Source of the DNA: an uncultured virus (IMG/VR IMGVR_UViG_2061766007_004178)
Taxonomy: Duplodnaviria > Heunggongvirae > Uroviricota > Caudoviricetes
Virus record (IMG/VR): IMGVR_UViG_2061766007_004178
Strand: one strand, 5' to 3'
Length of the DNA stretch: 27,168 bases
A program made the position numbers and the translations under genes. Below are positions 107-18,887 of the stretch, in pieces. Each line of letters opens with the position of its first letter. Position 1 is the first letter of the stretch. The notes under the pieces were generated by a model. That model ran no database searches. It saw only the letters and a list, made by a program, of their open reading frames with translations, and was not told the origin of the DNA.

Positions 107-2461
107 TTAATTCAGTTTGATTCTGCCGCAGATATTCTGGTATCTCGGAGGTATGCCGCCGTTGGCGATCGTCCTGCTCCAATTGCCGAATTCGTATCTG
201 CCGCTGGTCTGCTGGACCCATTCGACCCAGCTTGCCCTTCTGAGCGCGTCTACGATCCTCATGGCGTCGTTCGAGCTTATGTTATAGAACTCGAATACGC
301 CGTTCGAGCGCAGGATAGGCTGCGCGCCCGCCAATCTGGCGAGCTTCGTCAGATATTCGCGCCTCTCCGGCTCAGTGAGCTCGAAGGCTTCGAGAAGCGA
401 TTCCTGCAGCAATTCGCCGATGGTTTTCTGCGCGTCGGCGTCTTGGATGACCATGACCGGGAAATCGATGTCCCAGCCGAACATCTCGCCTAACGCGTAC
501 ATCCTATGCCTGCCCTCGATGCCACCGATGTCCTCGATCGAGCTGAAGCTCACGTATGGGAGCGGAAGCTTTTTGTTGAACTTGAGTATGACGTCTTTGA
601 TATGGGCTATCTGCCTTTCGTCTTTCGATATGAAATCGATTATCTCGTCAGGCGACGTATCCTGGGCTTTGCCACAGAGCTCGAAATACTGGGTCGGCGT
701 GATCTGGGCGATCGTGTACATCGCGCTTCTGTAGCGGCCGTCGTCGCTGCCGTCGAGCAGGTCTTGCGTCTGAAGCGTGCTGGCTTTGCGCGTGTCTATG
801 ACGTCTTGGCCATTCGCCTCTTCGGTTCCGTAATCCTTGAACTCATGGTCGTCGTCAAGATACTTGATGCCTTCCTCTAATGACAGCTTTTTGCTGGCGA
901 TTTTCAGCTTGAGGTCTTTCAGTTTGTCGAGCAGACCGGCGTTCCTGACTTCCTTGAAGATGAGGTTTTCGGTAGAGAATTCGCTGCCGGTGGCGCTGTG
1001 CAGGCCTTGCTGCCTCAGCTCATACAATCTGTTTATGTAGTCGTCTATCTCTTCGTCTCCGTCGGCGATGTTGTCGCTCGCGGATTTCACGAGCGCTTTC
1101 GCCTCTTCTATCCAAGGCGCGGCTGCTTTGTCGATGGCTTTCTGGTCGATATCGGGGACATAGCTTTCAGTCGGCTCTTTTATCCACCTGTCGTACATGA
1201 TGGAATAGACGCCGTTGCTGATGAGGTTGCTGTTGTCGGCCATTTCGATATAGGTCTCGACGGGGATGCCGTAGAAGGAGATGTCGTATCTGCTTTCGAA
1301 TATCCTGCGGTACGCGTTATATAATTTCTGGTACAGCTCGGATTGTTCTATGCCTTCTGGCGTCTCTGCCACGAGATGCACGTCGAGGTCGCTGTCTTTC
1401 GTGTAATTGTAGCTGGCGTTCGAGCCTGCCAAAATGACGTCTCTGATTTTCAGGCGGACGCCGTCTTCGAAGAGCATTTTGATGTATTCGTTGGCGATAT
1501 CCTGCACTTTCTGCCTGACTTCAGGCTTAAGCTCGTCGCCGTCGAATATCTTCTGGTTTAGTTCGTTGTGTTTCTCGATTGCTTCGTTCATATCGCTTCC
1601 CTCTAGGCTTTCGGCGTAATGCTTGCTTTTGTTATGCAGATAAGCTCCGCCGCATGTCGTATAGACTTTACGCGTGTTTTTCAGGTCCCTTATCTCTGGC
1701 TCTGGGTCGCCATAATGCCAGTCAGGGTCGTTTTTGATTTTGATCGGCTCATCGGTGATGGTATAGCTCCAATCACTGAGGTTCGGCGTTCTCGTCTGCG
1801 CACGCCCGCTCATGAAATTGGCTGCGAAATTGAATGCCTTGCTTCTATCGTCGAACAATGGCGTATCGTATCAGCTGTGCCCGCCGGCGGTTNNNNNNNN
1901 NNNNNNNNNNNNNNNNNNNNNNNNGCGATTTTTGCCGATGAGAATATGGCGTCTGATGCCGTCTGGTCTATAAGCTACTATTCGGTAAAACTGATCGGTC
2001 TTTCCCGATAGCTTGAATTTAATATTGCCGCCGGATTGGCTTGCGGCCTGCTTTTTCNNNNNNNNNNNNNNNNNNNNNNNNNNNNTCAGGTCATCCAGCT
2101 CATCTTCTGGCATCAGCGCGTATTTGTCGCAAGCCGATGAGTATCTGTCCGTGAAAAGCTTTATTCCGGCCAGCATGTTTCTTATGTCATCGATTGAATA
2201 CCCATATTCGCTCATAAGATGCATTTGCAGGTGCTTGGCCAGCGCATTCCATTTCATTATGACGGCCGCGATGAAACGACGGCAGATATCCGCTATTTCG
2301 GCATCTTTTTTGACGAGCGTCATATCGTCGAGCGCGTATCTCAAAGCGGCGTTCGTGAGTATGATGCCGCGTCTGAGCATATTAAGGCCGACGGCGACTT
2401 TTTTGAAGTCTTCTTCCGTTGGGACGCACTCTGCAACTGTCGGCACTTTCGGCATCAGCAT
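107..2461 (-). CDS. Multidomain protein (~780 aa): unknown N-terminus, pol-beta-type nucleotidyltransferase, ParB/Srx-like domain; in-frame TGA at 1871-1873
   Basis: ORFs 1871..2461 and 107..1858 join in frame through TGA (GHS*YDTPLFDD); motifs ILAGSNASYNY..SDLDVH and LPY..EGRHRMYAL. Confidence 0.75.
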
Positions 2462-3417
2462 TAGCCTTCCTCTTTCTCTTCGTTGTCCTTGCGCATTTCG
2501 GCGGCTAGCTGCTCAGCTCTGGCCGGAATGACGAATTTCTTATTGCAGGCATCGCAGCAGCGACCGCTGTGTTTGTACGGCTCTGGATTATTGCCATAGC
2601 CGATGCAGTCTTCGCCGCAGATGCAGCATGTGTATTCTCTGTCTGGATCTTCGGTCAGGCATTCTCCATAGACGTTAATGTCCGGGAAATCCTGGCTGAA
2701 TTCGTTTTCGTTATTGTTTTGCATATGATTTTTAGGTTTTACGATCAATGGCGATAGCGCATCGAAGTCGCTGCGCAAAATAGCCACCACTTTGTTTATC
2801 TCCGTAATCGCGGTGCCGTTGAAATAACCCGCATAGCCGGTTGGAAGGCCTTCTAAATCCGGCACGCGGATTATGCCGCTGATGCCGAACTTCATCGGGT
2901 ATCCGCCGCTCGTTCTCTGGTCCGCATCATAAATCGTTATCTGGTCATCTGTCAAGTCTGGCAGCAGTCATTTGAGTGCTCCGACTTTATCGGCTGGGCT
3001 TTGAAGTGAGATCGACGCACGTTTCGCCAGCAAAAACGAAACGATATCGTTGAATGATACCGTGATTGGCTTCGGAGGCTGCTCTGAGTCAACTTCGCCT
3101 CTGAGCGTCTTTTCGACGTCTTTGGCGGCTTTCTGCCTGAAGTATTCTCTGCGCTCTTCGGCCAATTCGGCAAGCTTGGCGTCGTAGCCCGCTATTCGGG
3201 CCGCTATCGCCGCTTTCTCCTTTTCGGCCGTCTTTATCTTGTTAGCCACGGTATTGGCGTGCTTAGGGTCTGTGTCGCTGGCATAGCCTGCGATTCTGAT
3301 ATCCGTGTCTTCGAGGCTTTTCAGCGCCTGCTCTTTCTTCTGTTTAAGCACAGTTACCTCGGCATCTATGATCAAAGGACGCCTTGCGGTTATGGTTTCA
3401 TTCAATTCGAAACTCAT
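2461..3417 (-). CDS. Hypothetical protein (318 aa) with coiled-coil N-terminus and C-terminal Cys-rich Zn-binding module; in-frame TGA at 2968-2970
   Basis: ORFs 2968..3417 and 2461..2955 join in frame (ALK*LLPDLTDD); CCICG..GYGNNPEP..CCDAC; AAGGAG RBS before 3417 and none before 2955. Confidence 0.7.
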
Positions 3418-3428
3418 CGCCTGGCTCC

Positions 3429-5774
3429 TTATTTCATCTGTCTGGCGTTGATGGCCCTGAAGTTGGCGACCGCCTCTTTGTCTTTGAGGTCGGCGTCGGT
3501 CAGCCTATCATCGTACTCTTTGTTGACCTGAGCATCCGGAGCAGCTTCGACGTCGGCGAATTTCTTGCGCTCTTCCTCATGCTTGACGTTTAGGTCGTAG
3601 TCCATGACCTTAACGTGGTTTTTGTCATAGAGGATGCCGTCGTCATAATAATATATGATATCCGAAGGCTTAAGTTCTTGGACATTGTCATGGTCGGTGA
3701 GGTTCTTCAGAGAATATATCGAGCAGTTTTCGCCATTCACTCTGAGAAGCGCTTTTAAGATGTCTTCTTTATTTGAGCAGAAGATGTTCTGAGGCCTGAC
3801 GTAATAGCGTTTGACGTAACGCTTGGCTTCGTCCAATCCAACGCTCTCTTCGATGCCGTTTTCAATTTGGTTTTCAGACAGGCTTTCCGTTTTCGGCACG
3901 ATCCTGCCGATCATATGAGTTATCCTGTCTATCGTATCTTTATCGCTGACGCAGGCTTTGAGAGACTCCTTAATCAGGTTTTCCGGATAATTAAGCTTGT
4001 TGACGATATGATCTTTGAGCGTTCCGACGAACGCTGCGTCTTTCTTTAGGCAGACCGCGAAAATCAAAGCCATCAGATAGTCCGCTGCTGGGTCTGTGCC
4101 TGGGGCGACGAATGTTATGGCTATCTGCTGTATGAGCGCCTGCGCGTCATTCGCAGCAGCGACTACGTTGAGAAGCGAGGCGCTGAAATCTGCCTCATTG
4201 AATTTAATGGCAGCTTTCGCTGGCTGCGCGGCAGGTTGTGCCGCAGGCTGCGGAGTCGGCTGCGCTGATGGGGCCGAGATCAATCCGCGCTGCATCATCT
4301 CGTCTTCGATGACTTTCAAAGCGTCGGTATAGCCTTCTGACCTGCAGACTCGCAGATTGAACCTGAGTTTCTCATCTGAGGCGGCTTTCGCGTTGAAATT
4401 GCGGGCTGGCTGACGTCTGTTCAAGAGATTGTTGAACTTGAACATCTTGTCTTTCTGCTCATACCAGTCCAAGTGCGCTTCGGTCAGCTGTTCTTCTGGC
4501 TGTTCTTTCGATTCGCTCAGGTCATCATCTGGCCTGCTCGCTTCGGCGGCGTTTTTGAGCTGCCCGTCTTCTTGCTGGACCCATGTCTCTTTCTTGATTG
4601 AGCAGAGCTTATTGTCTGTATCGCAGTCGATGCTCTCTGATACTCTTGCGATCGGATTATCTAAAATATCCTGCAAAACCGTATCCAATGGCTCGCCGTA
4701 ATATTCGTCTTCCGCCTCGAAAGCGTCGCATTCTGGCCACCAGTTCAGGTACAGGTCCAAGAAATTGTCACCATCGTCGTATTCGATGACATTCTGACGA
4801 AGCATCGAATCGTTTTCCATGGCGGCTTCTAAATCTGCGCCGCTGTCATAACCGAAGTTTTTCGCATATTTATCTAATCTCGCATGGTATTCGTTTTCTA
4901 GCTTTTGATTAAACGCTGGGTCATATTCTAGCTTCTCGTTCAAATTTTCGTCCCCACGATTGTCTAGCATATATTTGGCGAAGCCTTCCATCGTTTCACC
5001 GCCTTTTAAATAGCTGTAGAATGTGCGCTCAGCGTGCATGAGCTTTAAGAATTTGGTCAGAACTTTAGCCATTTCGTCGACTGTCTTGGCTGCGTAAAAC
5101 TCATCTAAGATATCATCTGGGCAGTCGAAACTGTTTATGTAATTCTCGGCCTTTCTATAGCTTTCTGCCAGGCTTTCGCCCATGCCTTCGCTTTCTCCGC
5201 CTGACGCGCCGGCGTCACCGGCTCCGTCTGAGGCTCCGGAATCAGCCGCAGCCGCATCGGNNNNNNNNNNNNNNNNNNNNNNNNNNNNNNNNNNNNNNNN
5301 NNNNNNNNNNNNNNNNNNNNNNNNNNNNNNNNNNNNNNNNNNNNNNNNNNNNNNNNNNNNGCCGCAATAAGCCGATGAATACGGCTTTTTCTTCTTTTTG
5401 CCTTCGGTCAGGCCGCAGCTCTCCCAGCAGGAGATCTGCTCGCAGTCCGCTCTGTTGAACAGGTCGCGGGTGGCTTCGATTACATGAGGATCGCATGAGC
5501 TGCCGTTGAACAGGCCGGTTTTGCACATATTGGCCGTTTGGTCGGTGTTCGGGACTTTGATGAGGTAAATCCTCGTCTGCTCGTCGCATCCGCAGTCGCC
5601 ATACTGTCTAGCCAAATCGTCGTATGCCGACTGCATCAAAGCGTCGTCTGTGTCGAACGCCTCGACGTAGCCTTGGTCGAAGCTGCCGTGCTTCAGCAAG
5701 ACGATGAACAGGCTATCGAGGTCCTCTACCTCGACAGGCTCCCAATTTTCGTTGATTTCGATTTTCTTTGCCAT
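3429..5774 (-). CDS. Large acidic multidomain hypothetical protein, possible virion internal protein
   Basis: 781-aa ORF with AGGAG RBS; modules separated by L-x-E motifs and AQP-type linkers; one N gap. Confidence 0.7.
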   Translation of the reverse strand: MAKKIEINENWEPVEVEDLDSLFIVLLKHGSFDQGYVEAFDTDDALMQSAYDDLARQYGDCGCDEQTRIYLIKVPNTDQTANMCKTGLFNGSSCDPHVIEATRDLFNRADCEQISCWESCGLTEGKKKKKPYSSAYCGXXXXXXXXXXXXXXXXXXXXXXXXXXXXXXXXXXDAAAADSGASDGAGDAGASGGESEGMGESLAESYRKAENYINSFDCPDDILDEFYAAKTVDEMAKVLTKFLKLMHAERTFYSYLKGGETMEGFAKYMLDNRGDENLNEKLEYDPAFNQKLENEYHARLDKYAKNFGYDSGADLEAAMENDSMLRQNVIEYDDGDNFLDLYLNWWPECDAFEAEDEYYGEPLDTVLQDILDNPIARVSESIDCDTDNKLCSIKKETWVQQEDGQLKNAAEASRPDDDLSESKEQPEEQLTEAHLDWYEQKDKMFKFNNLLNRRQPARNFNAKAASDEKLRFNLRVCRSEGYTDALKVIEDEMMQRGLISAPSAQPTPQPAAQPAAQPAKAAIKFNEADFSASLLNVVAAANDAQALIQQIAITFVAPGTDPAADYLMALIFAVCLKKDAAFVGTLKDHIVNKLNYPENLIKESLKACVSDKDTIDRITHMIGRIVPKTESLSENQIENGIEESVGLDEAKRYVKRYYVRPQNIFCSNKEDILKALLRVNGENCSIYSLKNLTDHDNVQELKPSDIIYYYDDGILYDKNHVKVMDYDLNVKHEEERKKFADVEAAPDAQVNKEYDDRLTDADLKDKEAVANFRAINARQMK

Positions 5775-5818
5775 GCTGCGATCTCCTATTTATATTGATT
5801 ATGATATAGCTTTTGCTG

Positions 5819-5869
5819 ATGATGCTTGGGCAACCGGTGAAAGGATAAGCTCAATTGCTCAAACATCAT
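5819..5869 (-). promoter_or_regulatory. Structured 5' leader hairpin (15-bp stem, 21-nt loop)
   Basis: ATGATGTTTGAGCAA pairs with TTGCCCAAGCATCAT (one G-U, one mismatch), immediately after the motif at 5871. Confidence 0.5.
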
Positions 5870-5870
5870 A

Positions 5871-5883
5871 TAATTTAGCAAAT
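5871..5883 (-). promoter_or_regulatory. Putative phage late promoter ATTTGCTAAATTA (copy 2)
   Basis: Exact repeat of the motif, directly downstream of the terminator at 5891-5918. Confidence 0.65.
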
Positions 5884-5890
5884 GATAAAT

Positions 5891-5918
5891 AAAAAAGCCC
5901 GTTTTCGGGCTTTCTTTT
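5891..5918 (-). terminator. Intrinsic terminator (possibly bidirectional)
   Basis: AAAGCCCG-AAAA-CGGGCTTT perfect stem followed by T tract. Confidence 0.85.
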
Positions 5919-5939
5919 TCAGGAGGCTTTTAGTGTCTT

Positions 5940-6639
5940 TTATTCGTCGCTTTCGACCGTTTTCTCAGGCTCGATGCCGTCGTCGATCTTCTCATTCTCG
6001 ATAGGCTGCTCNNNNNNNNNNNNNNNNNNNNNNNNNNNNNNNNNNNNNNNNGAAGTCTACGAAGAAATCGGCGACTTCAGGTTTTTCGAACTTTTTGGCG
6101 CCTTCGGCCTCTGGCGCATCGAATTCGAACGGCGTGTTGAACTGACCATCATCCGCGGCGATGGTCTCTTCGGCAGGAGCTTCGTCTTTAGGTTCTTCTA
6201 TAGCTGGGATCTCGACTTCGGCAGGCGGTATCTCGGACTCTTCTGCCTCAGCGGCTTTTTCTTCTGGTTCTGTTGGTTTTTCGCCGGCAATCGGCACGAT
6301 GATCTCGCCGTCGCCCTCAGCGTCTTTAATGGTGACGTTGCCGTCTTCGCCGATGTGGATATCGACGTCTTCCTTAAGCGCTTTGGCCTCTTCTGGGATA
6401 TCGAGGTAATCTTTGGCGTCGAGATGGAGCTCGATTTGGCCTATGCAGACCAAGTATGCGTCAAGGAGCGCCTGAAGGAGCTCTTCGACTTTTTTGGTCC
6501 CGCTGAAGTTCTCGCCGATGGACCTGATGGTCTCTTTGAGATAGCCGATGTCCTCCCAGCCTCTGCTGACGAAATCGGTCAGGAATGAGACAGGCAGCTT
6601 CTCTTTGGACTCGTTCAATGTTTGCTTTTCGATTTTCAT
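5940..6639 (-). CDS. Acidic hypothetical protein
   Basis: ATG 6639 with AGGAG RBS; after the N gap the acidic frame continues EQPIENEKIDDG..VESDE-TAA (5940). Confidence 0.7.
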
Positions 6640-6659
6640 GTTCTATAGTCTCCTGTATT

Positions 6660-7864
6660 TTATAACATATATTGGCTCGNNNNNNNNNNNNNNNNNNNNN
6701 NNNNNNNNNNNNGGAATCTCTCCATATGAACCAAACATAGCCTTTAAGCTTCAATGGGCTGCATCGATTCCAGTTAGTCTGGTCCTCGATATCATCATCA
6801 GACATGACGATTACGTTCGTGTACCCGTTCTGCTCGATGTTTTCCATTACCTCTGGGAAGCCATGTGTGCCGCCTTCATGCCAATCGGGACGGTCTTTGC
6901 CATTCGCGTTTGGGTCATCAGGCGGGTTCGTATGCAGATGGTTCGAGAAGTAATATAAGTCGATCTTCTTAATTTTATGTCTGGCTACGAAGCCATTCAA
7001 TACATTGATGGCTTCGACGCCTTTTCTGACGTCATCTCGTCCCCAAGAGCCAGACTGATCGAAATAGATCGCGAGAGATGGCAGAGTCTTCTTGTCTGGG
7101 TAGTCTTGTCCAGGCATGAGGTAATCGGTGCCGGCGTAGCTGGGATTAGGTCTCAGCCAGGTGTCTTCCGGCTCTTTGGCCGTGCCGATTTGGCTCTTCA
7201 TGGCCATGAATAGATCATTTGCGAAGTCTTCGAAATCCAATATGCCGCCGCGGGCTTTTCTAGCCGCTTCTTTGGCCGCGTTTTTCTCGGCCTTTATGCG
7301 TTCTTTCTCCGCTTTCGCGCGCTCTTGATCCTGATAGGCCGCGTCAGCTCTTATGTCGTCGAGGTCTTTTTGGATTTCGTCTGGATCGTTTATTTTCTTG
7401 ATGCGCTCTTTGCGTTCTTCTTCGGTCTCTTGGCTCACGTCTTCGTCTTTGTCTTTCACTGAAGAGTTTTTAGGCATAATCAGGCCATTGACCGTAAGTC
7501 GCTCGTCTTTGCTGCCGTTTTGGCCGGCCTGCCCATCGGCCTTATCGCCAGCGCTTTGACTGCCGTTTTTCGCGCGACCGGAGCTATTCTGCTCTGGGCC
7601 GGCGCTCGATTGCGATTGCTGGCTGTCGCCGTTCTGCTGGCCTTGGCCGCTCTGATTTGGTTTACTCTGCTGGCCTAAGTCGTTTTTGGAGGCGTTTTCA
7701 GAGCCTTGAGCGCCGTTTTCGCCCGCTTGCTTACTTGGCTTGTTTTTCGTCTGATCGCATTCGTCTGGATCCAGCTGAACAGGCCTAGTCTTGGATGTGA
7801 GCAGCGTCGAAAGCGCGTCTAAAGCGCCTTTCTTTTTCTGTGGATTGGTTAGGTTGATTGCCAT
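6660..7864 (-). CDS. vWA (MIDAS) domain protein with Q/G/S-rich N-terminal linker, DUF2201 C-terminal-like
   Basis: LAIYFDQSGSW (DxSxS), GGT, VIVMSDD; the end lies after an N gap (probably SQYML-TAA at 6660). Confidence 0.75.
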
Positions 7865-7873
7865 ATTCGTCTC

Positions 7874-8552
7874 CTATAAGACGTCGATGTCTCCGTTTTT
7901 GATTCTATCTATGATCTGCTCGATCTCTCGTTCGTCGACGCCTTCTTTGTCATAGCGCATCATGACCTCATTCCAAGCGGCTTTGTAGTCTGGATCGATT
8001 TCTTGGTCGTTTCCGGAGCCGCCGGCGCCGTTTTCGCTCTCCAAGCTTTGGCTGTCTGTGTCTGNNNNNNNNNNNNNNNNNNNNNNNNNNNNNNNNNNNN
8101 NNNNNNNNNNNNNNNNNNNNNNNNNNNNNNNNNNNNNNNNNNNNNNNNNNNNNNNNGCTTTGCGAACCGTTGCTGTCGGCATCGGCGTTTTCGCTGCTGG
8201 AGCTGTCACCACCAGCGCTGCCTTGGCCGCTCTGCGCCTGCTGATCGTTTTTGTTTTCGTTGTCTTTATTGTCACCCTCACCCTCGCCTTGCTGGCCTAC
8301 GCCGCCTTGGCTGGATTGCTTTTGCTGCTGTTTCTGCCTAAGCTGATCTAAGACATGGTCTGGGTCATCGAATTCGAACTCGTCTTGGCTGTCCATATCA
8401 GGCGAATTCGGCATCTCAGGCATATCGAGCTCAGGGTCTATTTCGACCTCTTGCCCCATCATCGGTGGCATTCCGGCTATGCCGCTGGCCGCCCTTGCCT
8501 TAAGAATGGCCTGCAACGCGTCGATTTTAGCTTGTTTCTCTGTCGCTGTCAT
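7874..8552 (-). CDS. Low-complexity Q/G/D/S-rich protein between the HExxH and vWA genes
   Basis: ATG 8552 with AGGAGG RBS; the two ORF halves flank the N gap 8065-8156; ends IDVL-TAG. Confidence 0.65.
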
Positions 8553-8563
8553 AAATGGCCTCC

Positions 8564-9292
8564 TTAATCGGCTTTCTCCGCCATAATGTCGGCAAGGATG
8601 TTNNNNNNNNNNNNNNNNNNNNTAGGATCATCATAAGTCCTCATTATTTCGTTGTAGGCATTGATGTATTCTGGCGTATGGGTTGCTTTCTTTATTTTGA
8701 TTTTAGGTTTTTTCGGAGGGTTTTTCTTCATGTTCTCCTCATGTTCTTTCATGAGCAGATCATACATCTCCTCCAATGTTTTGTTCATCCACTCTGGCTT
8801 ATCCATCTCAAGGACGAGGCCGCCGACGACTCTGCCGCAAATCGACAGATTGTGTGCGACTTGCTGATCGTGCTTATTATAGCCCTCTCTGGACAGATCC
8901 CAGTCTTCGGCTTTGTTCGCCAAATCACGGACGGTCGGATTGCGGAGCTTCTGCTCGAAGTCTTTGTGATGCGCTTTTAGATAATCATAAAGGCGCTTTT
9001 CGTGAACGAGCAAAAAGTGCAGCAATTCATGTCTGATTACGAGACTGAGCTGATCTTTCGTACGCTGCGATTCGCCTTCTGAGAACATGCCTGGGTTGAC
9101 CACGATCTCGCCGGTTTCCGGAAACATCGCGGCAACATCTATATAATGGCCATGGTAAACGTCGGCGCATACCAAATCGAATTCCTGCAGGCGTCTGGCA
9201 TACGTGCCATACCCTTGTTCGATAAGCAGCGAAACGAGATAGGCCTTTCTTTCGATGTCTGATTTATTCATTCGTTCTGTGATCTGCTGCAT
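8564..9292 (-). CDS. HExxH metallopeptidase-like protein (DUF2201 N-terminal-like)
   Basis: IVVNP..LVIRHELLHFLLVH..ANKAED; adjacent to AAA+ and vWA genes. Confidence 0.75.
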   Translation of the reverse strand: MQQITERMNKSDIERKAYLVSLLIEQGYGTYARRLQEFDLVCADVYHGHYIDVAAMFPETGEIVVNPGMFSEGESQRTKDQLSLVIRHELLHFLLVHEKRLYDYLKAHHKDFEQKLRNPTVRDLANKAEDWDLSREGYNKHDQQVAHNLSICGRVVGGLVLEMDKPEWMNKTLEEMYDLLMKEHEENMKKNPPKKPKIKIKKATHTPEYINAYNEIMRTYDDPXXXXXXXNILADIMAEKAD

Positions 9293-9308
9293 AACGCGCT
9301 CCTTACGC

Positions 9309-10576
9309 TTAATCTGGGAGGTTCATGATGAAATCGTCTATCGCGCTTGCTATCTGAGCGTCGGTTTTGGCGGCCTTATTCGGATTGACGCCTTGTTTAT
9401 TAAACACGTTGTTTCCGGTTGTTTGTACGTCGACATAGCTCGCAAGGGCGTTTTTTATAATCTGCTTCTTGCTCTGCTGCATACCAGAAAGCTCCAAAGC
9501 TTTCAAATAACTGGCCTTAGTGCCGTTGCTAGCTCTCAAAATACGCAAGAATGAACGATANNNNNNNNNNNTAAGATAATTGTCAACCTCGCCATACTTA
9601 CGGAAGATAGTTCTGACATCGTCTGCGTCATCTCAGCCGTCCTGTATGAAAGCCTTATCTGTGAGGATCTTATCGGCGATCGCATGCTGACCGGCGTACC
9701 TTTGCTGCGATTTAGGCGAAAGGAATTTGTTTTTTTCGATGGCTTTATATAAGGTATCTATGTGCTTTTTGAAAGCGGCCGTATTCGGTGCATGCTCAAT
9801 AACGAAGGCGTTTCTTGAAACCATGGCAGGGTCGAGCTGCTGTGCATCTTCGAAGACATCGCTGGCCGGATTAATCGCGCTGACCGTAAAAAGTATGTTA
9901 GGGAAGCGTCTGATATTTGAGATGACCCTGCCGTTCGGGTCTCTCGTAACGCCGGGAAGCGTGTGCTCATTGATCAACGTAAGCAAAGAGCCGATGATAT
10001 TGCCCCTGGCTCTATTAAGCTCATCCAAGAACAAGACTGTATTCGGGCGGCTCAAGGTCTCCCAGTAGTCCGAGACGACTGGGGTCTGCTTAAGGGTGCC
10101 ATTCGCGTCTGGGGATGGATATGGGATGCCGCCGACGGTCGCGATGTCGAGCGACTTGGCATCACATTCAAACATATTAAGGTGATGCTCCCTGCAGAAT
10201 TGTTTGACGATCGAGGTCTTGCCGAAGCCAGCTAAACCATAAATGAGCACATTTACGGATTCGCTTATGTCAGTTTCCCCAAGCTCTCTATCTGCTATAG
10301 CGGCTTCTAAAGCCATCTGAAGAGCGGNNNNNNNNNNNNNNNNNNNNCCGTGCCATATGGGTTTTCGATCAAGTCGGCCGTCTCATAGACGTCTTTGACG
10401 TGCTGCTGGAGAGCGGCTTGGTCTTTGACCTGTTTCCCGGCTTCGGCGGCGCCTTGCTCTATGTCTGCGGCGATCTCTTTAGGCGTGGCGTTATCCAATT
10501 CGACGACGTCTTCCTCAGGCGTTTCTTCTTCGGTCAGCTTCTTTTCTTCTGGTTTGTTGGTTTTTACGATTTTCAT
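9309..10576 (-). CDS. MoxR/AAA_5-type AAA+ ATPase with acidic N-terminal leader; in-frame TGA at 9633-9635
   Basis: Walker A GLAGFGKT, Walker B LFLDELNRA, SAINP, LDPAMVSR; frame continues QDG*DDADDVR..YRSFLRILRASNG to TAA at 9309; N-terminal piece joined across gap 10328-10347. Confidence 0.8.
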
Positions 10577-10590
10577 GTATGTGGCTCCTC

Positions 10591-11560
10591 CTAATCAATG
10601 AAGCTATAAAGGGCGTCAAACGCCTCTTTGATGTCTTTTTCGTATTCTTCTTTAGTTTTTTCACAGTCTTCTTCCAGCTCTTCACACAGCTTTCTCGCCA
10701 GAATATAAGCGGTACCGAATTCGGTGTTCACCTCAAAGTAGCCGCCTGGTTCTTCTTTAGTTCTCTTTATGCCTAAGCTGGCGACTTTGTTAGGCTTATG
10801 CGCAAGGCAGGTTTCCAGGAATTGCTGGCAGCTGTTGCGATCCGTAAAATAAAGCAAGCAGTCGTTATAGCCTTGCCCAGTCGTGAATTTAACAGGTAGT
10901 AGGGTAGTAGAGCTGTAGCCTTGTGGGCTGACGTGGATTCTAGGCTTGGTTGCTTTATTGCTGGATTGATTCGGATCAAATGTACCGTCGATTCAGAATA
11001 GGTAGCCTGANNNNNNNNNNNNNNNNNNNNNNNNNNNNNNNNNNNNNNNNNNNNNNNNNNNNNNNNNNNNNNNNNNNNNNNNNNNNNNNNNNNNNNNNNN
11101 NNNNNNNNNNNNNNNNNNNNTCGAATTCCCATAAAGCGGCTCCGAAAGCGGTCTTTTTGAAGAACTCAAGCTCCTGCGTCGTATGCGTCGACGCTGGCCA
11201 GAAAATCTCTGTCTTCGCGCATAGGCTGGCCAGAACGCGGGCGAGTTCGGCGATCTTGAAATAATAGCGGTCGTCGTCGCCGGCTGGATATGGATGCTTG
11301 TTGGCGTCGTATCAATAGCTGACGGTCGCNNNNNNNNNNNNNNNNNNNNNNNNNNNNNNNNNNNNNNNNNNNNNNNNCTTCAGTATATTGGCGTAAATCG
11401 CCTTGCATGCGGCGATGATATCGTCTTTTTTCGTCGGCTCTTTGATGTATTTGATATAGCCATCGATGATATCGCCGTTTTTGACCGCCGGGAAGAATAT
11501 CGTCTTCAGCCAAACCTTGGCTTTCCTGGCCTCAGATGCTGACAGTGAAGTGCTTGCCAT
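10591..11560 (-). CDS. Hypothetical protein, first gene of the AAA+/vWA operon; in-frame TGA at 11312-11314 and 10993-10995
   Basis: ATG 11560 with AAGGAG RBS; VSY*YDANKHP..ALWEF, then gap, then GYLF*IDGTF..CLLYFTDR..SFID-TAG. Confidence 0.65.
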
Positions 11561-11594
11561 TGAATGTCTCCTTAATTAATTTTCGAAAATCAAT

Positions 11595-11607
11595 TAATTT
11601 AGCAAAT
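11595..11607 (-). promoter_or_regulatory. Putative phage late promoter ATTTGCTAAATTA (copy 3)
   Basis: Exact repeat of the motif between the topA terminator and the RBS of 11560. Confidence 0.65.
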
Positions 11608-11614
11608 AAAAGAC

Positions 11615-11644
11615 AAATAAAAGACTACGCTTTAGCGTAGCCTT
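11615..11644 (-). terminator. Intrinsic terminator after topA
   Basis: AAGGCTACGC-TAAA-GCGTAGTCTT stem followed by TTATTT. Confidence 0.8.
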
Positions 11645-11648
11645 GCGT

Positions 11649-13863
11649 TTAATCTATATTGATTATGCCTCGGNNNNNNNNNNNNNNNNNNNNNNNNNNN
11701 NNNNNNNNNNNNNNNNNNNNNNNNNNNNNNNNNNNNNNNNNNNNNNNNNNNNNNNNNNNNNNNNNNNNNNNNNNNNNNNNNNNNNNNNNNNNNNNNNNNN
11801 NNNNNNNNNNNNNNNNNNNNNNNNNNNNNNNNNNNNNNNNNNNNNNNNNNNNNNNNNNNNNNNNNNNNNNNNNNNNNNNNNNNNNNNNNNNNNNNNNNNN
11901 NNNNNNNNNNNNNNNNNNNNNNNNNNNNNNNNNNNNNNNNNNNNNNNNNNNNNNNNNNNNNNNNNNNNNNNNNNNNNNNNNNNNNNNNNNNNNNNNNNNN
12001 NNNNNNNNNNNNNNNNNNNNNNNNNNNNNNNNNNNNNNNNNNNNNNNNNNNNNNNNNNNNNNNNNNNNNNNNNNNNNNNNNNNNNNNNNNNNNNNNNNNN
12101 NNNNNNNNNNNNNNNNNNNNNNNNNNNNNNNNNNNNNNNNNNNNNNNNNNNNNNNNNNNNNNNNNNNNNNNNNNNNNNNNNNNNNNNNNNNNNNNNNNNN
12201 NNNNNNNNNNNNNNNNNNNNNNNNNNNNNTGCAGGAATTCCGATTTGGTCTCTTTGCCGGACGCGATTTTGTCGAGGTCTTTCTCCATCTGATTGGTATA
12301 ATCGAGGTTGATGACGCCGCTGAACGCTCTGTCTAAGAAAGCCGCCAGCTGCATGCCTTTGTCCGTCGGGACGATGGTCTTGTCTTTAAGCTCGGCATAG
12401 CCGCGTTTCTGGCTCAATACTGTCTCGATGATGGTAGGCAGTGTGGCAGGCCTTCCGACGCCGGCCGCTTCGATCTTCTTCGATAAGGTCGCCTCGGTGT
12501 ATCTCGCAGGCGGNNNNNNNNNNNNNNNNNNNAGGTCGCAGTTCTTGAGCACTTCGCCTTTCTTGAAGGTCTCTTTGACCACGCCGTCGTCTTCTTGGTC
12601 GTCGTCTTTGTAGCTGTAGACCTCGCGATAGCCCAAGCTGGTTATCTCTTTCGACACAAGTATGAATTTCTCGCCATTGTTGTCGATGAGGTATTGGGTC
12701 TCTGAGATTTTGGCGTTAGGCAAAACCGATGCGATGGTCCTCTGCCATATGAGCTTGTACACTTTCTGGTTCAAGGTATTCGCGTCCAATTTATTATATG
12801 CTTCCGGGGTGAGACTTGGGTCGGTGACGCGCAAGCACTCATGGCCTTCTTGGGCGTTCTCCTGCTTTTTGCCGGTCCTAGGCTTCGTCCAAGCTGACTT
12901 TCCATACGTGCTTTCGACATAATCCTTCAGAACAGGGATAAATTCGGCCGCGATGCTGGTATCGTCCGTTCTTGTGTAGGTTATACGGCCGGATTCAAAT
13001 AGCTTCTGGGCGATGGCGGCAGCGTCTTTCGTCTTGAGATTGAGCTTGCTGTTCGCCTCTTGCTGGAACGTGCTTGTTATGAATGGCGGCTTCGGCGCCT
13101 CTTCTTTCTCTTTCTGCTTGACGGCCTCGATCACGAAATCGCCTGTGCAGTGCTTCTTTATCTTATCGACTTCTGCCTGCGACTTGAGATGGTCTACGTT
13201 GCCGATTTCGTTGTTTCCGGCGAATTTCGCCTTGAATTTGGTTTTGTTTTTAACGAAATTGACATATAGATCCCAATATTTCTCAGGGACGAAGTTCTGT
13301 ATCTCCCGCTCTCTGTCCGCGACTATCTTGAGGCCGACCGATTGGCAGCGGCCTACCGAAAGAGCCCCGACGTATGTCTTGGCGATCGGGCTAAGCCTGA
13401 AGCCGATCANNNNNNNNNNACCTGCGTCTACGAGATTTTCGTTGAGCGTTATAGGGTTTTCGATGGCCTTCACGACCGCTTTAGGCGTGATCTCATGCGT
13501 TACCGTCCTTCTGATTTTGCTCTTAGGTATGCCTAAGAACTTGATAAGGCTCCATGAGATGACCTCACCTTCTCGGTCAGGGTCGGACATGAGATAGACC
13601 AAATCGGCCGTTTTGACTGCGGCTTTCAGGTCTTGCACGGTCTTGTATTTATCGTCCGCAATCTGAAGGTTCAGCTCGAAATCTTTGCTTGGATTGATGC
13701 CTGAGTTGGCGTATGGCCCGCCGTTGGCGAGCTGCATTATGTGCCCGACGGATGCTTGCACGTTAGCTTGATATCCGGCTTTCCTCAGGTAGTCTCTGAT
13801 GTGGTCGCGCTTGGTCGGAGACTCGACGATTACAAGTATTTTCTTACTTTTCAAATCTTCCAT
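11649..13863 (-). CDS. topA: DNA topoisomerase I (type IA)
   Basis: IVESPTK, SVGHI, DPDREGE (TOPRIM), GRCQS, ITYTRTD (catalytic Tyr), AQEGHE, GVGRPAT; C-terminus in gap 11674-12229, probably ending RGIINID-TAA at 11649. Confidence 0.92.
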
Positions 13864-13881
13864 TCAAAATCTCCGTATAGA

Positions 13882-14028
13882 TTATTTTTTGACGTTGAGC
13901 TCTTTCTCCAAGATCTCGCGGATCAAAGCTGAGACGGTGACGTCTTTGTTGAACGCTTCGACCTTGAGGGCTTTGCGCAAATATTCTGGGATCTCAAGGC
14001 TGATGATTTTCTTTTCTTCTTTCTTCAT
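13882..14028 (-). CDS. Ribbon-helix-helix (CopG/Arc-like) DNA-binding protein, 48 aa
   Basis: IISLEIPEYLRKALKVEA..VTVSALIREIL pattern; GGAG RBS. Confidence 0.75.
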   Translation of the reverse strand: MKKEEKKIISLEIPEYLRKALKVEAFNKDVTVSALIREILEKELNVKK

Positions 14029-14038
14029 AGCTGTCTCC

Positions 14039-14290
14039 CTATCTTTTGTTCTTTGGGTTCTGCGGGTTCTTAGCCCACGCTTCATAGATGAAGGATACGA
14101 CCGAATTGCCCTTCGTCTTGACCATGCGGGTCGCGAAGTCTATCGTATCGTTCGTTTTCGGCCTGTAGATGCCTAATATCTTGCGGCTGCTGAATTCGAG
14201 CGCGTAGATATTGCCGTCGTCTCTCGTTTCGAGCATGCCGATGATGTTCTTAGTATCGAAGTCTCTGATGTATTCGACGTTAGTGGGCAT
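14039..14290 (-). CDS. Hypothetical protein (83 aa)
   Basis: Tightly packed ORF with GAGGA RBS. Confidence 0.65.
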   Translation of the reverse strand: MPTNVEYIRDFDTKNIIGMLETRDDGNIYALEFSSRKILGIYRPKTNDTIDFATRMVKTKGNSVVSFIYEAWAKNPQNPKNKR

Positions 14291-14292
14291 AG

Positions 14293-15043
14293 CTATTTCC
14301 TCTTCTTGTTAACGAATCTCATGCGCTGCGCCCTTTGGGCCAGCTTCTGGCTTTGGTCTGCGGCTCGGATCGCCAAAGCGGCTTTCGCCTGCGCTTTGAC
14401 CGATGGCGATTTGCCGACCACGTTGGCCTCTCCGTTGATTACCTTTTCGGTGAAGCGGAGGTTCTGGTACTGTTTGCTGAGGCTTTCGTCGGCGCCGATG
14501 GCTTTCTGCATCTCGGCCGACCTGGCCGCCATGATTTTCTTGTACATGTCGACGAGCTGCGCCATCTCTTCTTCGCTGGCGTCCCATAAGGAGCCGTCTT
14601 CGTCGATGTCGGTGACGACGCCCATGACGTCTGGGGTGACGCCGTCCAATAGCTGGGCATTCTGGTCGAACACCCTGGCGGCGATGCCTAGGAGCTTGTT
14701 CTCTTCGTACTGAAAGCCGTCGGTGTAATAGACTACGGTGATCTCGTCTGGGCGGCAGATGAGTATCTCTTTGCCGGGCATGCTTGAGCACGTCTCAGGC
14801 TGTATGTTGTAGTTGGATTTCTTGGTTATGACCGGGTTGATGAACGTCTTGACGCTGTCTTTGAACCTCATGCAGAATATGCGCTTATTGATCCCGAGCT
14901 GAGGCGCGGTGACGGCGACGGNNNNNNNNNNNNNNNNNNCCTTCAATTTGCCGATGATTTCCTCGCCTTCTTCCTTCTCAACGCCCTTTTCGGTGAGGAA
15001 TTCCAAAGGCTCGGCGGCTGATTTAAGCTGCTCTATATCGGTG
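14293..15043 (-). CDS. def: Peptide deformylase homologue lacking the catalytic HExxH, with C-terminal extension (start lies in gap)
   Basis: VAVTAPQLG..RIF..FINPVI, ETCSSMPG (cf. EGCLS), RP..I.V.Y, ARVFDQNAQLLDG (cf. ARxxQHExDHLDG). Confidence 0.8.
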
Positions 15044-15304
15044 NNNNNNNNNNNNNNNNNNNNNNNNNNNNNNNNNNNNNNNNNNNNNNNNNNNNNNNNN
15101 NNNNNNNNNNNNNNNNNNNNNNNNNNNNNNNNNNNNNNNNNNNNNNNNNNNNNNNNNNNNNNNNNNNNNNNNNNNNNNNNNNNNNNNNNNNNNNNNNNNN
15201 NNNNNNNNNNNNNNNNNNNNNNNNNNNNNNNNNNNNNNNNNNNNNNNNNNNNNNNNNNNNNNNNNNNNNNNNNNNNNNNNNNNNNNNNNNNNNNNNNNNN
15301 NNNN

Positions 15305-15586
15305 CGTGGCGTTGCGCCGTTCGAATTCGTCATGCAGCGCCTTATTGGCTCTGCCGTATTTGGCCTTCTTCGATTTTTTGTTCGGCATCTCAAGCAGGTA
15401 TAGGATATAGCCGACGCGATCGACGTTGTTCTGCACCGATGCGTTCATGTCCTTGACCTCAGTCAGCTTATCTTCCGTGATATAGCCGTTTCTGAGCGCT
15501 TCTTCAAAATCGGCGTAGTCTCTCGCGAGCTCGTCTTTCTGGGCGATCAGCTTCCAATAGTATTCTTTGACGTCTCTTATTGCCAT
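15305..15586 (-). CDS. Hypothetical helical protein (end lies in gap)
   Basis: MAIRDVKEYYWKL.. ORF starts 2 nt after the upstream TAA. Confidence 0.6.
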
Positions 15587-15588
15587 TA

Positions 15589-16008
15589 TTATGCGTCTCC
15601 TGTCTTCTCGTCGTTTATGGTGTATTCCAGCGTCGCAGCGAAATTGTAGTTCTGCGGCAGGTTCTCGAACGCCGCTTCTATCTCGATCGCAGCCGCCTCA
15701 TATATGAAGTGCATGCTGTCGTTCAGGAACATGTTTATCTCCCTGTTGACGCCTGCTTCTTTGTATCTGAATGACTTGACCGATAGGTCGAAGCCGCCTG
15801 GCAGCTCAGGGCATCCGTCCACAGGACCCCAGCTCAGAACGGTCGACTGGCCCATGACGGTCTTGATTATCATATAATAGTCAGCCGGTATCTTAAGGCC
15901 TTTGCCTACCGAGTAATAGCCGTGCGCCACTATCGCGCAGGTGCCTGGGTCCTCGACTTCCAAGGTCGCCGAGAACGACTTGACGCCGCTGTAGTCAAAC
16001 AGCGCCAT
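15589..16008 (-). CDS. Hypothetical protein (139 aa)
   Basis: TAATG-coupled to the upstream gene. Confidence 0.65.
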   Translation of the reverse strand: MALFDYSGVKSFSATLEVEDPGTCAIVAHGYYSVGKGLKIPADYYMIIKTVMGQSTVLSWGPVDGCPELPGGFDLSVKSFRYKEAGVNREINMFLNDSMHFIYEAAAIEIEAAFENLPQNYNFAATLEYTINDEKTGDA

Positions 16009-16310
16009 TATGCGGTCCTTTCGGCGATCTTGACGTAATACTTGCCTTCCACGAAATCCGCGAACAGGAAGATATCGTACGTGACCTCATCGACGTCTAT
16101 TTCGAAATAGTTCGTGATTTTGGTCGTAGCTTCGTTCGTGTTCTTGGCGAATTCCGGGTATTCGGTGTTGATCGCGTTTTTGTCGAGCTTGGTGTACATC
16201 CTGGCGTAATCGTTGCTGTCTTTAAGCTGGATCACGTAGAAATGGTCTTTATAGCTGCCGGTCTCGGTGATTCCGAGCTTGTTCAGGATCTCTTTGATGT
16301 TACTTATCAT
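16008..16310 (-). CDS. Hypothetical protein (100 aa)
   Basis: Overlapping coupled ORF with GGAGG RBS. Confidence 0.65.
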   Translation of the reverse strand: MISNIKEILNKLGITETGSYKDHFYVIQLKDSNDYARMYTKLDKNAINTEYPEFAKNTNEATTKITNYFEIDVDEVTYDIFLFADFVEGKYYVKIAERTA

Positions 16311-17151
16311 CTGTCTTGCCCTCCACGCCGTCGAGCGCGTCTATCACGTCTTTGCTGACGTTTTCGCTGCCTTTGATCTTGCTCATGAACTGCAATACGG
16401 CGCGTTTGACGCGGTCTCTGGACTCGCGGTCCATTTCCTCTGGCTTGTCGCCGCCGAGGTTGTTGTTCTGCTGGTTTATCTGAATGAACGGAGGCTTTTC
16501 CTCGACGCTCGCTTGCTTGCCGCCGCGCTCGATGATCTCCTGTATCAGCCTGATGGCCTGCATGAGCTCTGCATTCGAGATGTTATCTGGCCTGTCTTTG
16601 ACGCGGTTGAAAAGCTGCTTGACGAGCAGATCCTGCGTCTCGCTCAAGGTGTCTATCCTGACGAGCGTTTTCTTCGTCTGGTTGACGTTGAACAGATAAG
16701 TCAGGTCTTTCGCTTTGTCGAGGTCGTTCTCGGCTATGAGCTTGTTGAGGAGGTCTTTGGCCTCTTCGCTCAGGCTCGCCGTATCGATGGCGACGAGGGC
16801 GGACGTATCTTCGGCAGGCGAAGAAGCGGTTACGNNNNNNNNNNNNNNNNNNNNNNNNNNNNNNNNNNNNNNNNNNNNNNNNGATTCCAATGGGTCGGCG
16901 TCGCCGTTCAGACTGTCTTTAATGGCGGTCTTCAAGTCTTTGCTAGGGACGAATTTGCACTGCATGTCGATCAGATCGACGCTTAAGGTGCCGATTCCGA
17001 TGTTGATGATGACCGTCTGCTCACCGGCCGCTTTCGCGTCGCAGATGATGCTTCCGATGCAAAGATTGGCCTTCTGTATCAGCTCATTCGTGAGTTTGTT
17101 CGGAAGCTTGAGCAGCGTTCCGACGTCGTTTATAAGATTAGGTTGGTTCAT
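16300..17151 (-). CDS. Hypothetical protein(s); possibly two genes joined across gap 16835-16882
   Basis: Open frame on both sides of the gap; AAGGAG RBS before 17151. Confidence 0.55.
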   Translation of the reverse strand: MNQPNLINDVGTLLKLPNKLTNELIQKANLCIGSIICDAKAAGEQTVIINIGIGTLSVDLIDMQCKFVPSKDLKTAIKDSLNGDADPLEXXXXXXXXXXXXXXXXXVTASSPAEDTSALVAIDTASLSEEAKDLLNKLIAENDLDKAKDLTYLFNVNQTKKTLVRIDTLSETQDLLVKQLFNRVKDRPDNISNAELMQAIRLIQEIIERGGKQASVEEKPPFIQINQQNNNLGGDKPEEMDRESRDRVKRAVLQFMSKIKGSENVSKDVIDALDGVEGKTDDK

Positions 17152-17153
17152 GT

Positions 17154-17450
17154 TTATTCTCCTTGATCATGAGGAATCACAGGCTTTTGCTTAAGTCGCT
17201 CGATTTCGAGCCATCTGCGCATCACAGGCGGCATTGTGTCATAAAGGTATGTTATCATCGCTTGACGCTCCGTGTAGACAAGCGAAGGGCCGCTGGTATC
17301 GCCGTTAAAATAATCCATAAGCTTACCGAACGCCTGATTAATCGTATAAGCTTCTGTGTCTATGCCAGAAAGATGCTTGGCGCATTTGCTGATACCTTCT
17401 CTGTCTTCTTTTGGGCTGCATTCTTCTTTTGGGTTGCATTCAGTTTGCAT
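17154..17450 (-). CDS. Hypothetical protein (98 aa)
   Basis: AGGAG RBS; packed between neighbours. Confidence 0.6.
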   Translation of the reverse strand: MQTECNPKEECSPKEDREGISKCAKHLSGIDTEAYTINQAFGKLMDYFNGDTSGPSLVYTERQAMITYLYDTMPPVMRRWLEIERLKQKPVIPHDQGE

Positions 17451-17463
17451 TTTTCGAAATCTC

Positions 17464-17691
17464 CTAATTGTCTATTCTTTTCAGCAGCGCGATCGGGTCT
17501 TCGTTCTCGAGCTGCCAGGCGCTGTTTTGCACCTCAGTCACGTAGGCGAGCAACGATCTGTCTAGCTTATGCGTGATGCAGTGCGCCATGATCTGATACG
17601 GTTCGAACGTGTGCGAGAACAGCTCTTTCACGAACTTGACCCTCGTCTCGAACGTTCGCTCGCCGAGTGGGAATTTATCTGTAGTCGCCAT
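17464..17691 (-). CDS. Hypothetical protein (75 aa)
   Basis: MATTDKFP.. start with AAGGA RBS. Confidence 0.55.
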   Translation of the reverse strand: MATTDKFPLGERTFETRVKFVKELFSHTFEPYQIMAHCITHKLDRSLLAYVTEVQNSAWQLENEDPIALLKRIDN

Positions 17692-18079
17692 GTTTGATCT
17701 GTTCCTTGTCGATATTGTACTGACGCATGATAGGTATGATCTTGAGATACAAATCGGTGGCTTTGTCCAATTGCTTCGGGGTGACGTCCTCAAGTTTGCC
17801 TTGAGCGTCGACCAAGGTCATGCCGTCTATATTGATGTATTGATATAAGAGCAATGCATTCGCCATGGTCGCGAATTCCTCGGCGCTTGGAACTTTGAGC
17901 GTCCTGCCTTCGAAATAGGTGAACAGCCTCGTGAGGTTGGCGCCGTCGAGCAGATAGCATAATTCGCTCAATGAGGCGTATTCTGGGATATCCTGTATTT
18001 TGTAGATTATGAACAGCATCAGCGAATATATGTCCGACAGATGCAGGTTGTTCAGGTGCGCTTTAACGCTAGTCTTCAT
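17675..18079 (-). CDS. Putative Mor/C-like transcription regulator
   Basis: LCYLLDGANLTRLFTYFEGRTLKVPS resembles the Mor-family L..l...FGG..lYiP motif; GGAGGAG RBS. Confidence 0.45.
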   Translation of the reverse strand: MKTSVKAHLNNLHLSDIYSLMLFIIYKIQDIPEYASLSELCYLLDGANLTRLFTYFEGRTLKVPSAEEFATMANALLLYQYINIDGMTLVDAQGKLEDVTPKQLDKATDLYLKIIPIMRQYNIDKEQIKHGDYR

Positions 18080-18887
18080 AAGCGTCTCTCTCCTCCGTCG
18101 TGTTCTGGAGCATTTTGTCGAGCACGCCATCATCGATGTTCGTGGCTTGATAGCAGTCCATTATCTCGTTTTTGATTTCTGAGTAGAATTCCTTCAGCAA
18201 TATCCTGACGTATCCGGACATCGATTTAGGGAGCTTCCACAGCATCAGCGTCGGCAAGTCTGAATCGAGCTTCTTCTTCATCTTCAGCGAATTGGCCGCG
18301 TTGAGCAATAACGATATCTTAAGCTTTTTGTAGTCGACCGACCTTGGGCTGAACGGCGATTTCTTGAGCACCTCATCGGCGAGGTCTCCTATGTTCTCGA
18401 AAGACGCCGTGATGTATGTCTTGAAATCCTCGTTCACGCCGAGCGTCGCCCTGACGCTTTCCCTAAGCTGCTCTCTGAACGTCCATGAATCGAATTTCTT
18501 GGACGTGAACTGCTCGTCGAGTATCTCTCTGAAGGTCTCGTTCTGGTATTCGATTTTCATCGGATACAATAAGGCTTTCATGTAATTGAGGCACGATTTG
18601 ATAGGCCTGATTTCTTTGCCTTTGATGGTCTTGCCTTGGTTCCATTGATTTTTCCTCAAAGCGAAGAACAATCTGTTGGCCGCATAGAAAGCATATGGGT
18701 CATAGTCCTGGAAGTTGTTGAACATGCATTTCTTGATGGCCAATGCCTTAACAACCAATCACAGATAATTGTAGACCGTGTTTTCTATTTCGGGGTATTG
18801 CCCAGGCTCGGCAATCTTAGGAATGTTCTGGTCGATGTAAATACACAGGTCTGTGTATTTCTTCGCCGGGTCCTTTTTCCATTGCAT
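18069..18887 (-). CDS. Hypothetical protein (272 aa), possible divergent sigma factor (gp55-like); in-frame TGA at 18759-18761
   Basis: ATG 18887 with GAAAGG RBS reads MQWKKDP..VYNYL*LVVKALAIKK into ORF 18069..18758; region-2-like spacing; next to gp46/47-like genes. Confidence 0.55.

Follow-up and report, generated by a model that had tools for sequence, protein, structure and literature searches.

TGA very probably serves as a rare tryptophan codon in an uncultured jumbo phage from the bovine gut

Results

Six in-frame TGA codons in a phage replication block

The DNA studied here, referred to below as the window, is a stretch of 27,168 bases from an uncultured member of the Caudoviricetes (IMG/VR record IMGVR_UViG_2061766007_004178). 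The virus is a jumbo phage, and the sequencing runs that contain the window bear the organism label bovine gut metagenome. It is interrupted by 25 runs of N (2,395 N in all), has a G+C content (GC) of about 50% when the N are excluded, and carries every convincing gene on its minus strand, the gene set being that of a replication block. Our subject is six in-frame TGA codons on that strand, at 1871, 2968, 9633, 10993, 11312 and 18759, in five genes. A first-pass annotation, made from the letters alone, had listed these codons with their peptide contexts, both of which we reproduced exactly, and had proposed that TGA is read as a sense codon in this phage, probably as tryptophan. Our analysis shows that the five genes are full-length only if UGA is decoded; TGA is almost certainly a sense codon here and very probably means tryptophan (NCBI translation table 4).

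The gene at 18069..18887 encodes a 272-aa protein, which belongs to a large family conserved among phages, and has one TGA (18759..18761) at residue 43. The protein has no Pfam or PHROG match and 871 database homologues (E≤0.001); the best 120 of these 871 are 255-278 aa long, and the 25 that were aligned match over nearly their full length. The gene at 10591..11560 (about 320 aa, without functional assignment) holds two TGAs, at 11312..11314 (residue 83 of the gene starting at 11560) and, in its distal part, at 10993..10995. It looks like two frames in the window because an N run is not true to length, as contigs show, and both halves fall in one frame of a relative (L005, 8738-9142 and 9296-9703). 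Next to it lies a gene for an AAA_5-type ATPase of about 420 aa (9309..10576; Pfam AAA_5 and AAA), with a TGA at 9633..9635, residue 228 when counted from the ATG at 10316. Its first 87 or so residues stand in another frame owing to an N run at which contigs show one extra letter; its homologues measure 404-530 aa, and their N-terminal start resembles the ORF (open reading frame) at 10576. The fourth gene, at 2461..3417, encodes a 318-aa protein with a Cys-rich C-terminal part, for which Pfam and PHROG searches gave no match, and has its TGA at 2968..2970 (residue 150). The fifth, at 107..2461, encodes a 784-aa protein with a TGA at 1871..1873 (residue 197); its centre matches phrog_36119, labelled as a nucleotidyltransferase domain in some phage records, and an L001 homologue is 48% identical to it over residues 9-784 in a single frame.

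The first-pass annotation had taken the lengths of the N runs as true, which is contradicted by contigs from public runs that have other letter counts at these places. The reading frame shifts across at least seven of the 25 runs (for example at 20116-20139, 21242-21367, 10328-10347, 11011-11120, 8065-8156, 6680-6712 and 6012-6051), so that frames read across N runs are unreliable and the genes for SbcC, SbcD, the ATPase and the 10591-11560 protein appear split though they are whole; both halves of SbcC, too, fall in a single frame of L005. Three of the TGA sites (1871, 10993 and 11312) lie 5-6 codons downstream of an N run. Our gene counts rest on a hand-curated gene list, as an automatic greedy choice of ORFs was misled by the N runs.

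TGA occurs within genes and is absent from gene ends

The curated gene pieces comprise 7,985 readable codons, with six TGA, 60 TGG and no TAA or TAG, while their off-frames contain 198 and 166 TGAs. TGA thus makes up 6/66 (9%) of the tryptophan codons of the window, in line with the first-pass view that TGG still dominates and the recoding is of low frequency. Among the 27 readable gene ends, 18 are TAA, nine are TAG and none is TGA, so that the rule stated earlier, that all readable ends are TAA or TAG, holds throughout. Four ORFs look TGA-ended under the standard code (table 11), at 5992, 6461, 7968 and 21165, each just downstream of an N run; their true frames terminate in TAA or TAG, and the apparent TGA ends are artefacts of frame slip at the N runs.

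If the TGAs were real stops, the genes would be split, decaying or occasionally read through to give two products. Such a view has in its favour that under table 11 each half upstream of a TGA forms an ORF preceded by a good ribosome-binding site, and that the gene callers behind the databases have produced truncated forms. The downstream halves, however, have neither proper starts nor ribosome-binding sites: AGGAG-like sites precede the true gene starts, whereas the five candidate restarts examined after TGAs (1858, 2955, 9548, 10857 and 18758) are all TTG and have no AGGAG-like motif, as the first-pass annotation had observed. The count of six in-frame TGAs against none among 27 gene ends is likewise incompatible with ordinary stops.

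As for the bases themselves, all six sites are covered by contigs of public runs X1 and X2, in which no letter differs and no TGG appears; runs X3 and X4 cover none of them. The agreement of X1 and X2, while it bears out the bases as first read, counts for little as independent support because the two runs share a single sample, and the window may itself have come from X1. Stronger support is given by the TGA at 18759, which recurs in many other records, and sequencing error was rejected as an explanation.

Homologues are continuous through all six sites

Homologues run on as one continuous protein through all six TGA sites (6/6) and are not the separate genes that the first-pass annotation had named as possible counter-evidence. 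Tryptophan is the commonest residue opposite three of the sites (18759, 2968 and 1871) and is found in at least one relative opposite 9633 and 10993, and thus at five of the six. The site at 18759 is the clearest: all 24 full-length aligned homologues have tryptophan there, with conservation of the preceding 42 residues. In the DNA of 28 viral contigs the codon at this column is TGG in 17, TGA in seven, TAC in two, and TTT and TAT in one each; among 44 distinct contexts from viral and metagenome contigs, after removal of duplicates, it is TGA in 25, TGG in 15, TAC in two, and TTT and TAT in one each. An invariant tryptophan is thus written TGA both in the window and in 25/44 distinct relatives, while seven other relatives of the 28-contig viral set have the whole gene without any TGA. 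The other TGA-bearing relatives that were checked range from about 27 to 52% GC, compared with about 50% in the window.

At 2968, five of six full-length homologues (60-64% identity) have tryptophan and one has arginine. At 1871, nine full-length but distant homologues divide into four with Trp, three with Glu and two with Asn, and two L001 paralogues continue through the site with Leu and Ile. The 18 full-length homologues of the ATPase are all continuous at 9633, with Trp in the three closest (56-67% identity) and Phe in 15. Opposite 10993, L005 has TGG and L095 has Tyr. For 11312, L005 is the sole relative that covers the site; it is continuous there and has TAT (Tyr), and a search of 19 relatives' records for this gene gave weak matches only, none reaching the site. 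As a side observation, a tandem paralogue of the N-terminal 275 or so residues of the 784-aa protein (24% identity) lies just upstream of the full-length homologue in L001 (9107-9952 and 10001-12313).

The conservation of both halves as a single protein in up to hundreds of relatives, and the retention of TGA at an invariant tryptophan in so many of them, argue further against real stops, a reading that we regard as having almost nothing left to recommend it. Split genes were ruled out on the grounds that no restart starts or ribosome-binding sites are present and that the homologues are continuous. The truncated database forms are better understood as casualties of table-11 gene calling, and the expectation that standard annotation would miss the recoding is borne out by three of them: P0001, identical to the ATPase of the window, terminates exactly at the TGA at 9633; P0125, a call of the 272-aa protein, is shortened to 224 aa; and P0309, 89% identical to the 784-aa protein, ends directly before the TGA at 1871.

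TGA and TGG interchange at conserved tryptophan columns

In the DNA of the relatives, TGA and TGG interchange at conserved tryptophan columns. Opposite 50 TGG sites of the window, the relatives show TGG 228 times, TGA 69 times, TTT 51 times and TAT 37 times. Conversely, 95 columns with TGA and a well-aligned context, drawn from the window and five relatives' records, are faced by TGA (40), TGG (33), Tyr (8), Phe, Ile and Leu (3 each), Asp (2), and Ala, Lys and Val (1 each), and never by Gly or Cys. Tryptophan thus accounts for 33 of the 55 informative columns; these tallies are counts and not independent events, since pairs of related genomes are not independent. Together with the three sites at which tryptophan is the commonest residue, they favour the meaning that the first-pass annotation had preferred. 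As to how the matches were found, neither an opening scan of viral sequences nor one of metagenomes with only the ATPase as query returned any, and it was an alignment query and another protein that succeeded.

The same columns bear on the possibility that TGA stands for another residue, either glycine, as in table 25 of Gracilibacteria, Absconditabacteria and their phages, or selenocysteine. Phages with table 25 do exist, as described in a preprint (Borges et al., bioRxiv 10.1101/2021.08.26.457843), and ARAGORN labels UCA tRNAs 'SeC', a label derived from the anticodon alone. Against these points, glycine and cysteine are each found at 0/55 informative columns compared with 33 for tryptophan, the relatives' UCA tRNAs are 75 nt long with a 7-bp acceptor stem and a short variable loop, and a tryptophan-tRNA ligase adjoins tRNA arrays in relatives. 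The long tRNA of the selenocysteine type differs from such a molecule. A meaning of glycine or selenocysteine has, in our judgement, a negligible chance of being correct. Table 25 was ruled out by the lack of glycine at these columns, and selenoprotein genes were ruled out by the lack of cysteine and by the ordinary 75-nt cloverleaves of the relatives' UCA tRNAs, a SECIS (selenocysteine insertion sequence) element not having been searched for.

A comparison of coding density under tables 11 and 4, put forward with the original proposal, was run on a relative (G001, 104.7 kb) rather than on the window, and there it went in the expected direction: the part covered by ORFs of at least 150 aa rose from 0.55 to 0.79, and the longest ORF grew from 919 to 1,798 aa. 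In the closest syntenic relative (G002, 32.6 kb), TGA ends none of the 38 genes picked. The share of TGA among tryptophan codons varies along G001, from 0.09-0.24 in the last 27 kb or so to 0.32-0.59 elsewhere. This block (at about 77-104.7 kb of G001, whose records are L007-L012) consists of small genes with very few TGAs and resembles an early region that is readable in the standard code; it fits a region read before a switch of code during infection.

Relatives encode tRNA(UCA), tryptophan-tRNA ligase and release factor 1

Seven records of the relatives, which are jumbo phages, were judged at least 90% complete; they measure 201-237 kb and have 6 to 33 tRNA genes each. We sorted them by the presence or absence of TGA in the gene of the 272-aa protein, used as a marker. 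The four near-complete relatives with TGA in this gene (G013, G014, G015 and G016) each carry some of three components: a tRNA with anticodon UCA (tRNA(UCA)), a tryptophan-tRNA ligase (TrpRS, gene trpS) and release factor 1 (RF1, gene prfA). In both G013 and G015 there is a 75-nt cloverleaf tRNA whose anticodon is UCA, together with a PF00579 match; the trpS of G013 is a TIGR00233 equivalog (317 bits, cut-off 177), and the putative ligase of G015 is a PF00579 match, the NCBIfam scan for trpS having covered G013 and G014. In G014, trpS (324 bits, cut-off 177) is directly followed by prfA (472 bits, cut-off 400); both are written without TGA, and the next gene, for a papain-family peptidase (Peptidase_C1), has nine in-frame TGAs (L088 1495-3549 and L086 1976-2869). 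G016 (52% GC) has a prfA (436 bits, cut-off 400) adjoining its tRNA array, and the TrpRS genes of relatives likewise adjoin tRNA arrays. The suggestion that a suitable tRNA or release factor gene be sought therefore finds its answer in relatives, with tRNA(UCA) in G013 and G015 and RF1 in G014 and G016; the window has no tRNA gene, and its named genes gave no match to RF1 or TrpRS in searches of the Pfam and PHROG type.

No tRNA(UCA), TrpRS or RF1 was found in G008, G009 and G012, the three near-complete relatives whose marker gene lacks TGA. The ORFs that end in TGA there are followed by short read-through tails resembling those of the standard code, by a crude test that covered portions of these genomes.

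Several unusual RNA genes were seen in these genomes. A tRNA-like gene of G016 (L077 11230-11305) has UCA in a six-base loop, and another in G007 (L073 4046-4119) has a six-base anticodon loop with UUA-like letters; both may be unconventional suppressors. Identical 89-nt tRNA-like genes with a long variable arm and an eight-base anticodon loop, read as 'tcac' by ARAGORN, occur in two relatives without TGA in the marker gene (L082 10667-10755 in G009 and L084 1165-1253 in G017) and are possibly decoders of UCA or of four bases. Genes for tmRNA (transfer-messenger RNA) adjoin tRNA genes at L077 5654-6038 (G016) and L080 1641-2046 (G014).

The distribution of these components is also relevant to whether the host itself uses table 4, in the manner of Mycoplasma, with the phage simply following its host and driving no recoding of its own. 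In some Mollicutes TGA means tryptophan throughout the host; the whole cell is on this code and release factor 2 is lacking. The window is without recoding machinery of its own, and its AGGAG sites fit a host of the Firmicutes type, both of which would agree with such a host. In a table-4 host, on the other hand, the RF1, TrpRS and tRNA(UCA) of the relatives would be needless. As indirect evidence, the family includes the members just described, with no TGA in the marker gene and with TGA-ended ORFs followed by short tails, and the block of about 27 kb almost without TGA in G001 fits a change of code in the course of infection. Hosts with the standard code are also what Borges et al. (bioRxiv 10.1101/2021.08.26.457843) predict, by the account in their preprint, for clades of this kind. 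We therefore consider a table-4 host improbable, though somewhat less so than the two readings dismissed above.

Other genes of the window

Besides the AAA_5 ATPase (9309..10576), the replication block comprises, all on the minus strand, two clamp-loader subunits, a RecB-like exonuclease, SbcD-like and SbcC-like nuclease subunits, a type IA topoisomerase (11632-13863; Toprim and Topoisom_bac), a peptide deformylase (14293-15042; phrog_2890) and several conserved proteins without names. No terminase was found in the window. A megablast search found no match for 17.7 kb of the window among 50,697 deposited phage records, and tblastn with two of its proteins gave distant domain matches only. At 16300-17151 one half matches 3455-3709 of L005 and the other 3804-4310, in a different frame, and contigs give a different length at the internal N run, so that the segment may represent two genes or a shifted frame. 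Short contigs from a metatranscriptome library of another study match the window at 10216-10427 and 12835-12874 (95-99% alike); these matches mean presence in an RNA library, are not proof of transcription, and do not show the TGA codons to be transcribed.

Discussion

Our study leads us to the view that the window belongs to a jumbo gut phage in which TGA is, in all likelihood, a rare tryptophan codon and not a terminator. To judge by analogy with the relatives, the decoding itself is probably the work of machinery that the phage brings into a standard-code host. In such a scheme, a phage tRNA with anticodon UCA would be charged with tryptophan, sometimes by a tryptophan-tRNA ligase of the phage's own, and would insert this residue at UGA, while a phage RF1 would terminate translation at UAA and UAG and spare UGA. 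The host would itself remain on the standard code, and TGA could then act as a timing device. We infer this machinery for the phage of the window, where no tRNA is present, from its presence in relatives.

A number of points weigh against parts of this interpretation. Three of the six columns do not speak plainly for tryptophan: the sole relative aligned at 11312 has tyrosine, phenylalanine outnumbers tryptophan by 15 to three at 9633, and Glu or Asn stands in 5/9 homologues at 1871. Some of the tryptophans in database proteins may moreover be translated TGAs, the contig of P0132 having three TGAs in the gene concerned, and the contigs that confirm the bases of the window stem from one sample, which may be its own source. 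The assignment of tryptophan is based on comparison of sequences. As for the machinery, tRNA(UCA), RF1 and TrpRS were seen in relatives only and are absent from the window. They were likewise missing from the first five syntenic relatives detected, G001-G005, two of which were also empty by ARAGORN, a result that says little because these records are 10-46% complete. In G007 (64% complete), which belongs with the relatives whose marker proteins most resemble that of the window (76-78%), none of the 38 tRNAs in the stretch examined has a UCA anticodon. The tRNA(UCA) of G013 is most like a phage tRNA-Trp, but that of G015 is slightly closer to tRNA-Arg than to tRNA-Trp.

It is conceivable, although we think it rather unlikely, that TGA has been retained as a deliberate gate and not by drift, that the family may switch repeatedly between the standard code and table 4, and that a few TGAs may suffice to hold a defined set of genes until the suppressor is available. 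The idea comes from the invariant tryptophan that is written TGA in the window and in 25/44 distinct relatives, from the location of all six surviving TGAs in five genes of the replication block in a member that has reduced TGA to 9% of its tryptophan codons, and from the way in which RF1, TrpRS and tRNA(UCA) come and go between sister genomes.

The use of TGA for tryptophan has already been published for some gut phages; the phenomenon is therefore not new, and the window is one more case. The biological gain is accordingly small, this being another jumbo gut phage of a published type whose relatives have the same kit of tRNA(UCA), TrpRS and RF1. Of modest note are the use of TGA for 9% of tryptophan codons at about 50% GC, the three miscalled proteins, and a tool kit that is on or off among sister genomes. 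A test for recoding based on coding density would barely register six codons in 27 kb, and table-11 callers cut the proteins; low-frequency members of recoded phage families are therefore probably under-counted and mis-annotated.

A survey from 2026 (PMC13037316) reports that jumbo phages from animal habitats recode TGA and TAG and have suppressor tRNAs to match. In the scheme it sets out, a genome is called recoded only if its coding density rises by 10%, and TGA is read as glycine (PMC13037316). A low-frequency case like the present one would probably fall below that threshold.

The closest parallels are found in the preprint of Borges et al. (bioRxiv 10.1101/2021.08.26.457843), which describes gut-phage clades (Jade, Sapphire and Agate) that read TGA as tryptophan in standard-code hosts and have genomes of about 150-200 kb. 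As reported there, suppressor tRNAs occur in about a third of the genomes, two Jade genomes have RF1 and TrpRS in an operon that keeps to the standard code and lies upstream of lysis genes that are recoded, replication genes are variably recoded, and a single clade mixes standard-code and recoded members. All our observations fit this account: the window and its relatives agree with these clades in the presence of in-frame TGA opposite tryptophan, in their animal-gut origin, in genome size (201-237 kb in the relatives, compared with about 200 kb) and in that some genomes have tRNA(UCA) and others do not. The use of TGA in replication genes varies here too, and the family again mixes standard-code with recoded members. 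G014 also has RF1 and TrpRS side by side in the standard code, ahead of a gene with nine TGAs, the layout of the 'code-change operon' of the two Jade genomes; the likeness to Jade is one of genome size, RF1 and TrpRS only. Within this comparison the window is marked by its low use of TGA, at only 9% of tryptophan codons and entirely in replication-block genes, and it differs from its closest relatives (30-35% GC) in having about 50% GC. With table 4 of the Mollicutes type, the family shares the meaning of the codon and, in the relatives, a tRNA with the same UCA anticodon. In Mollicutes, however, the code is cell-wide, whereas here the machinery is borne by the phage in relatives and recoded members stand beside apparently standard ones.

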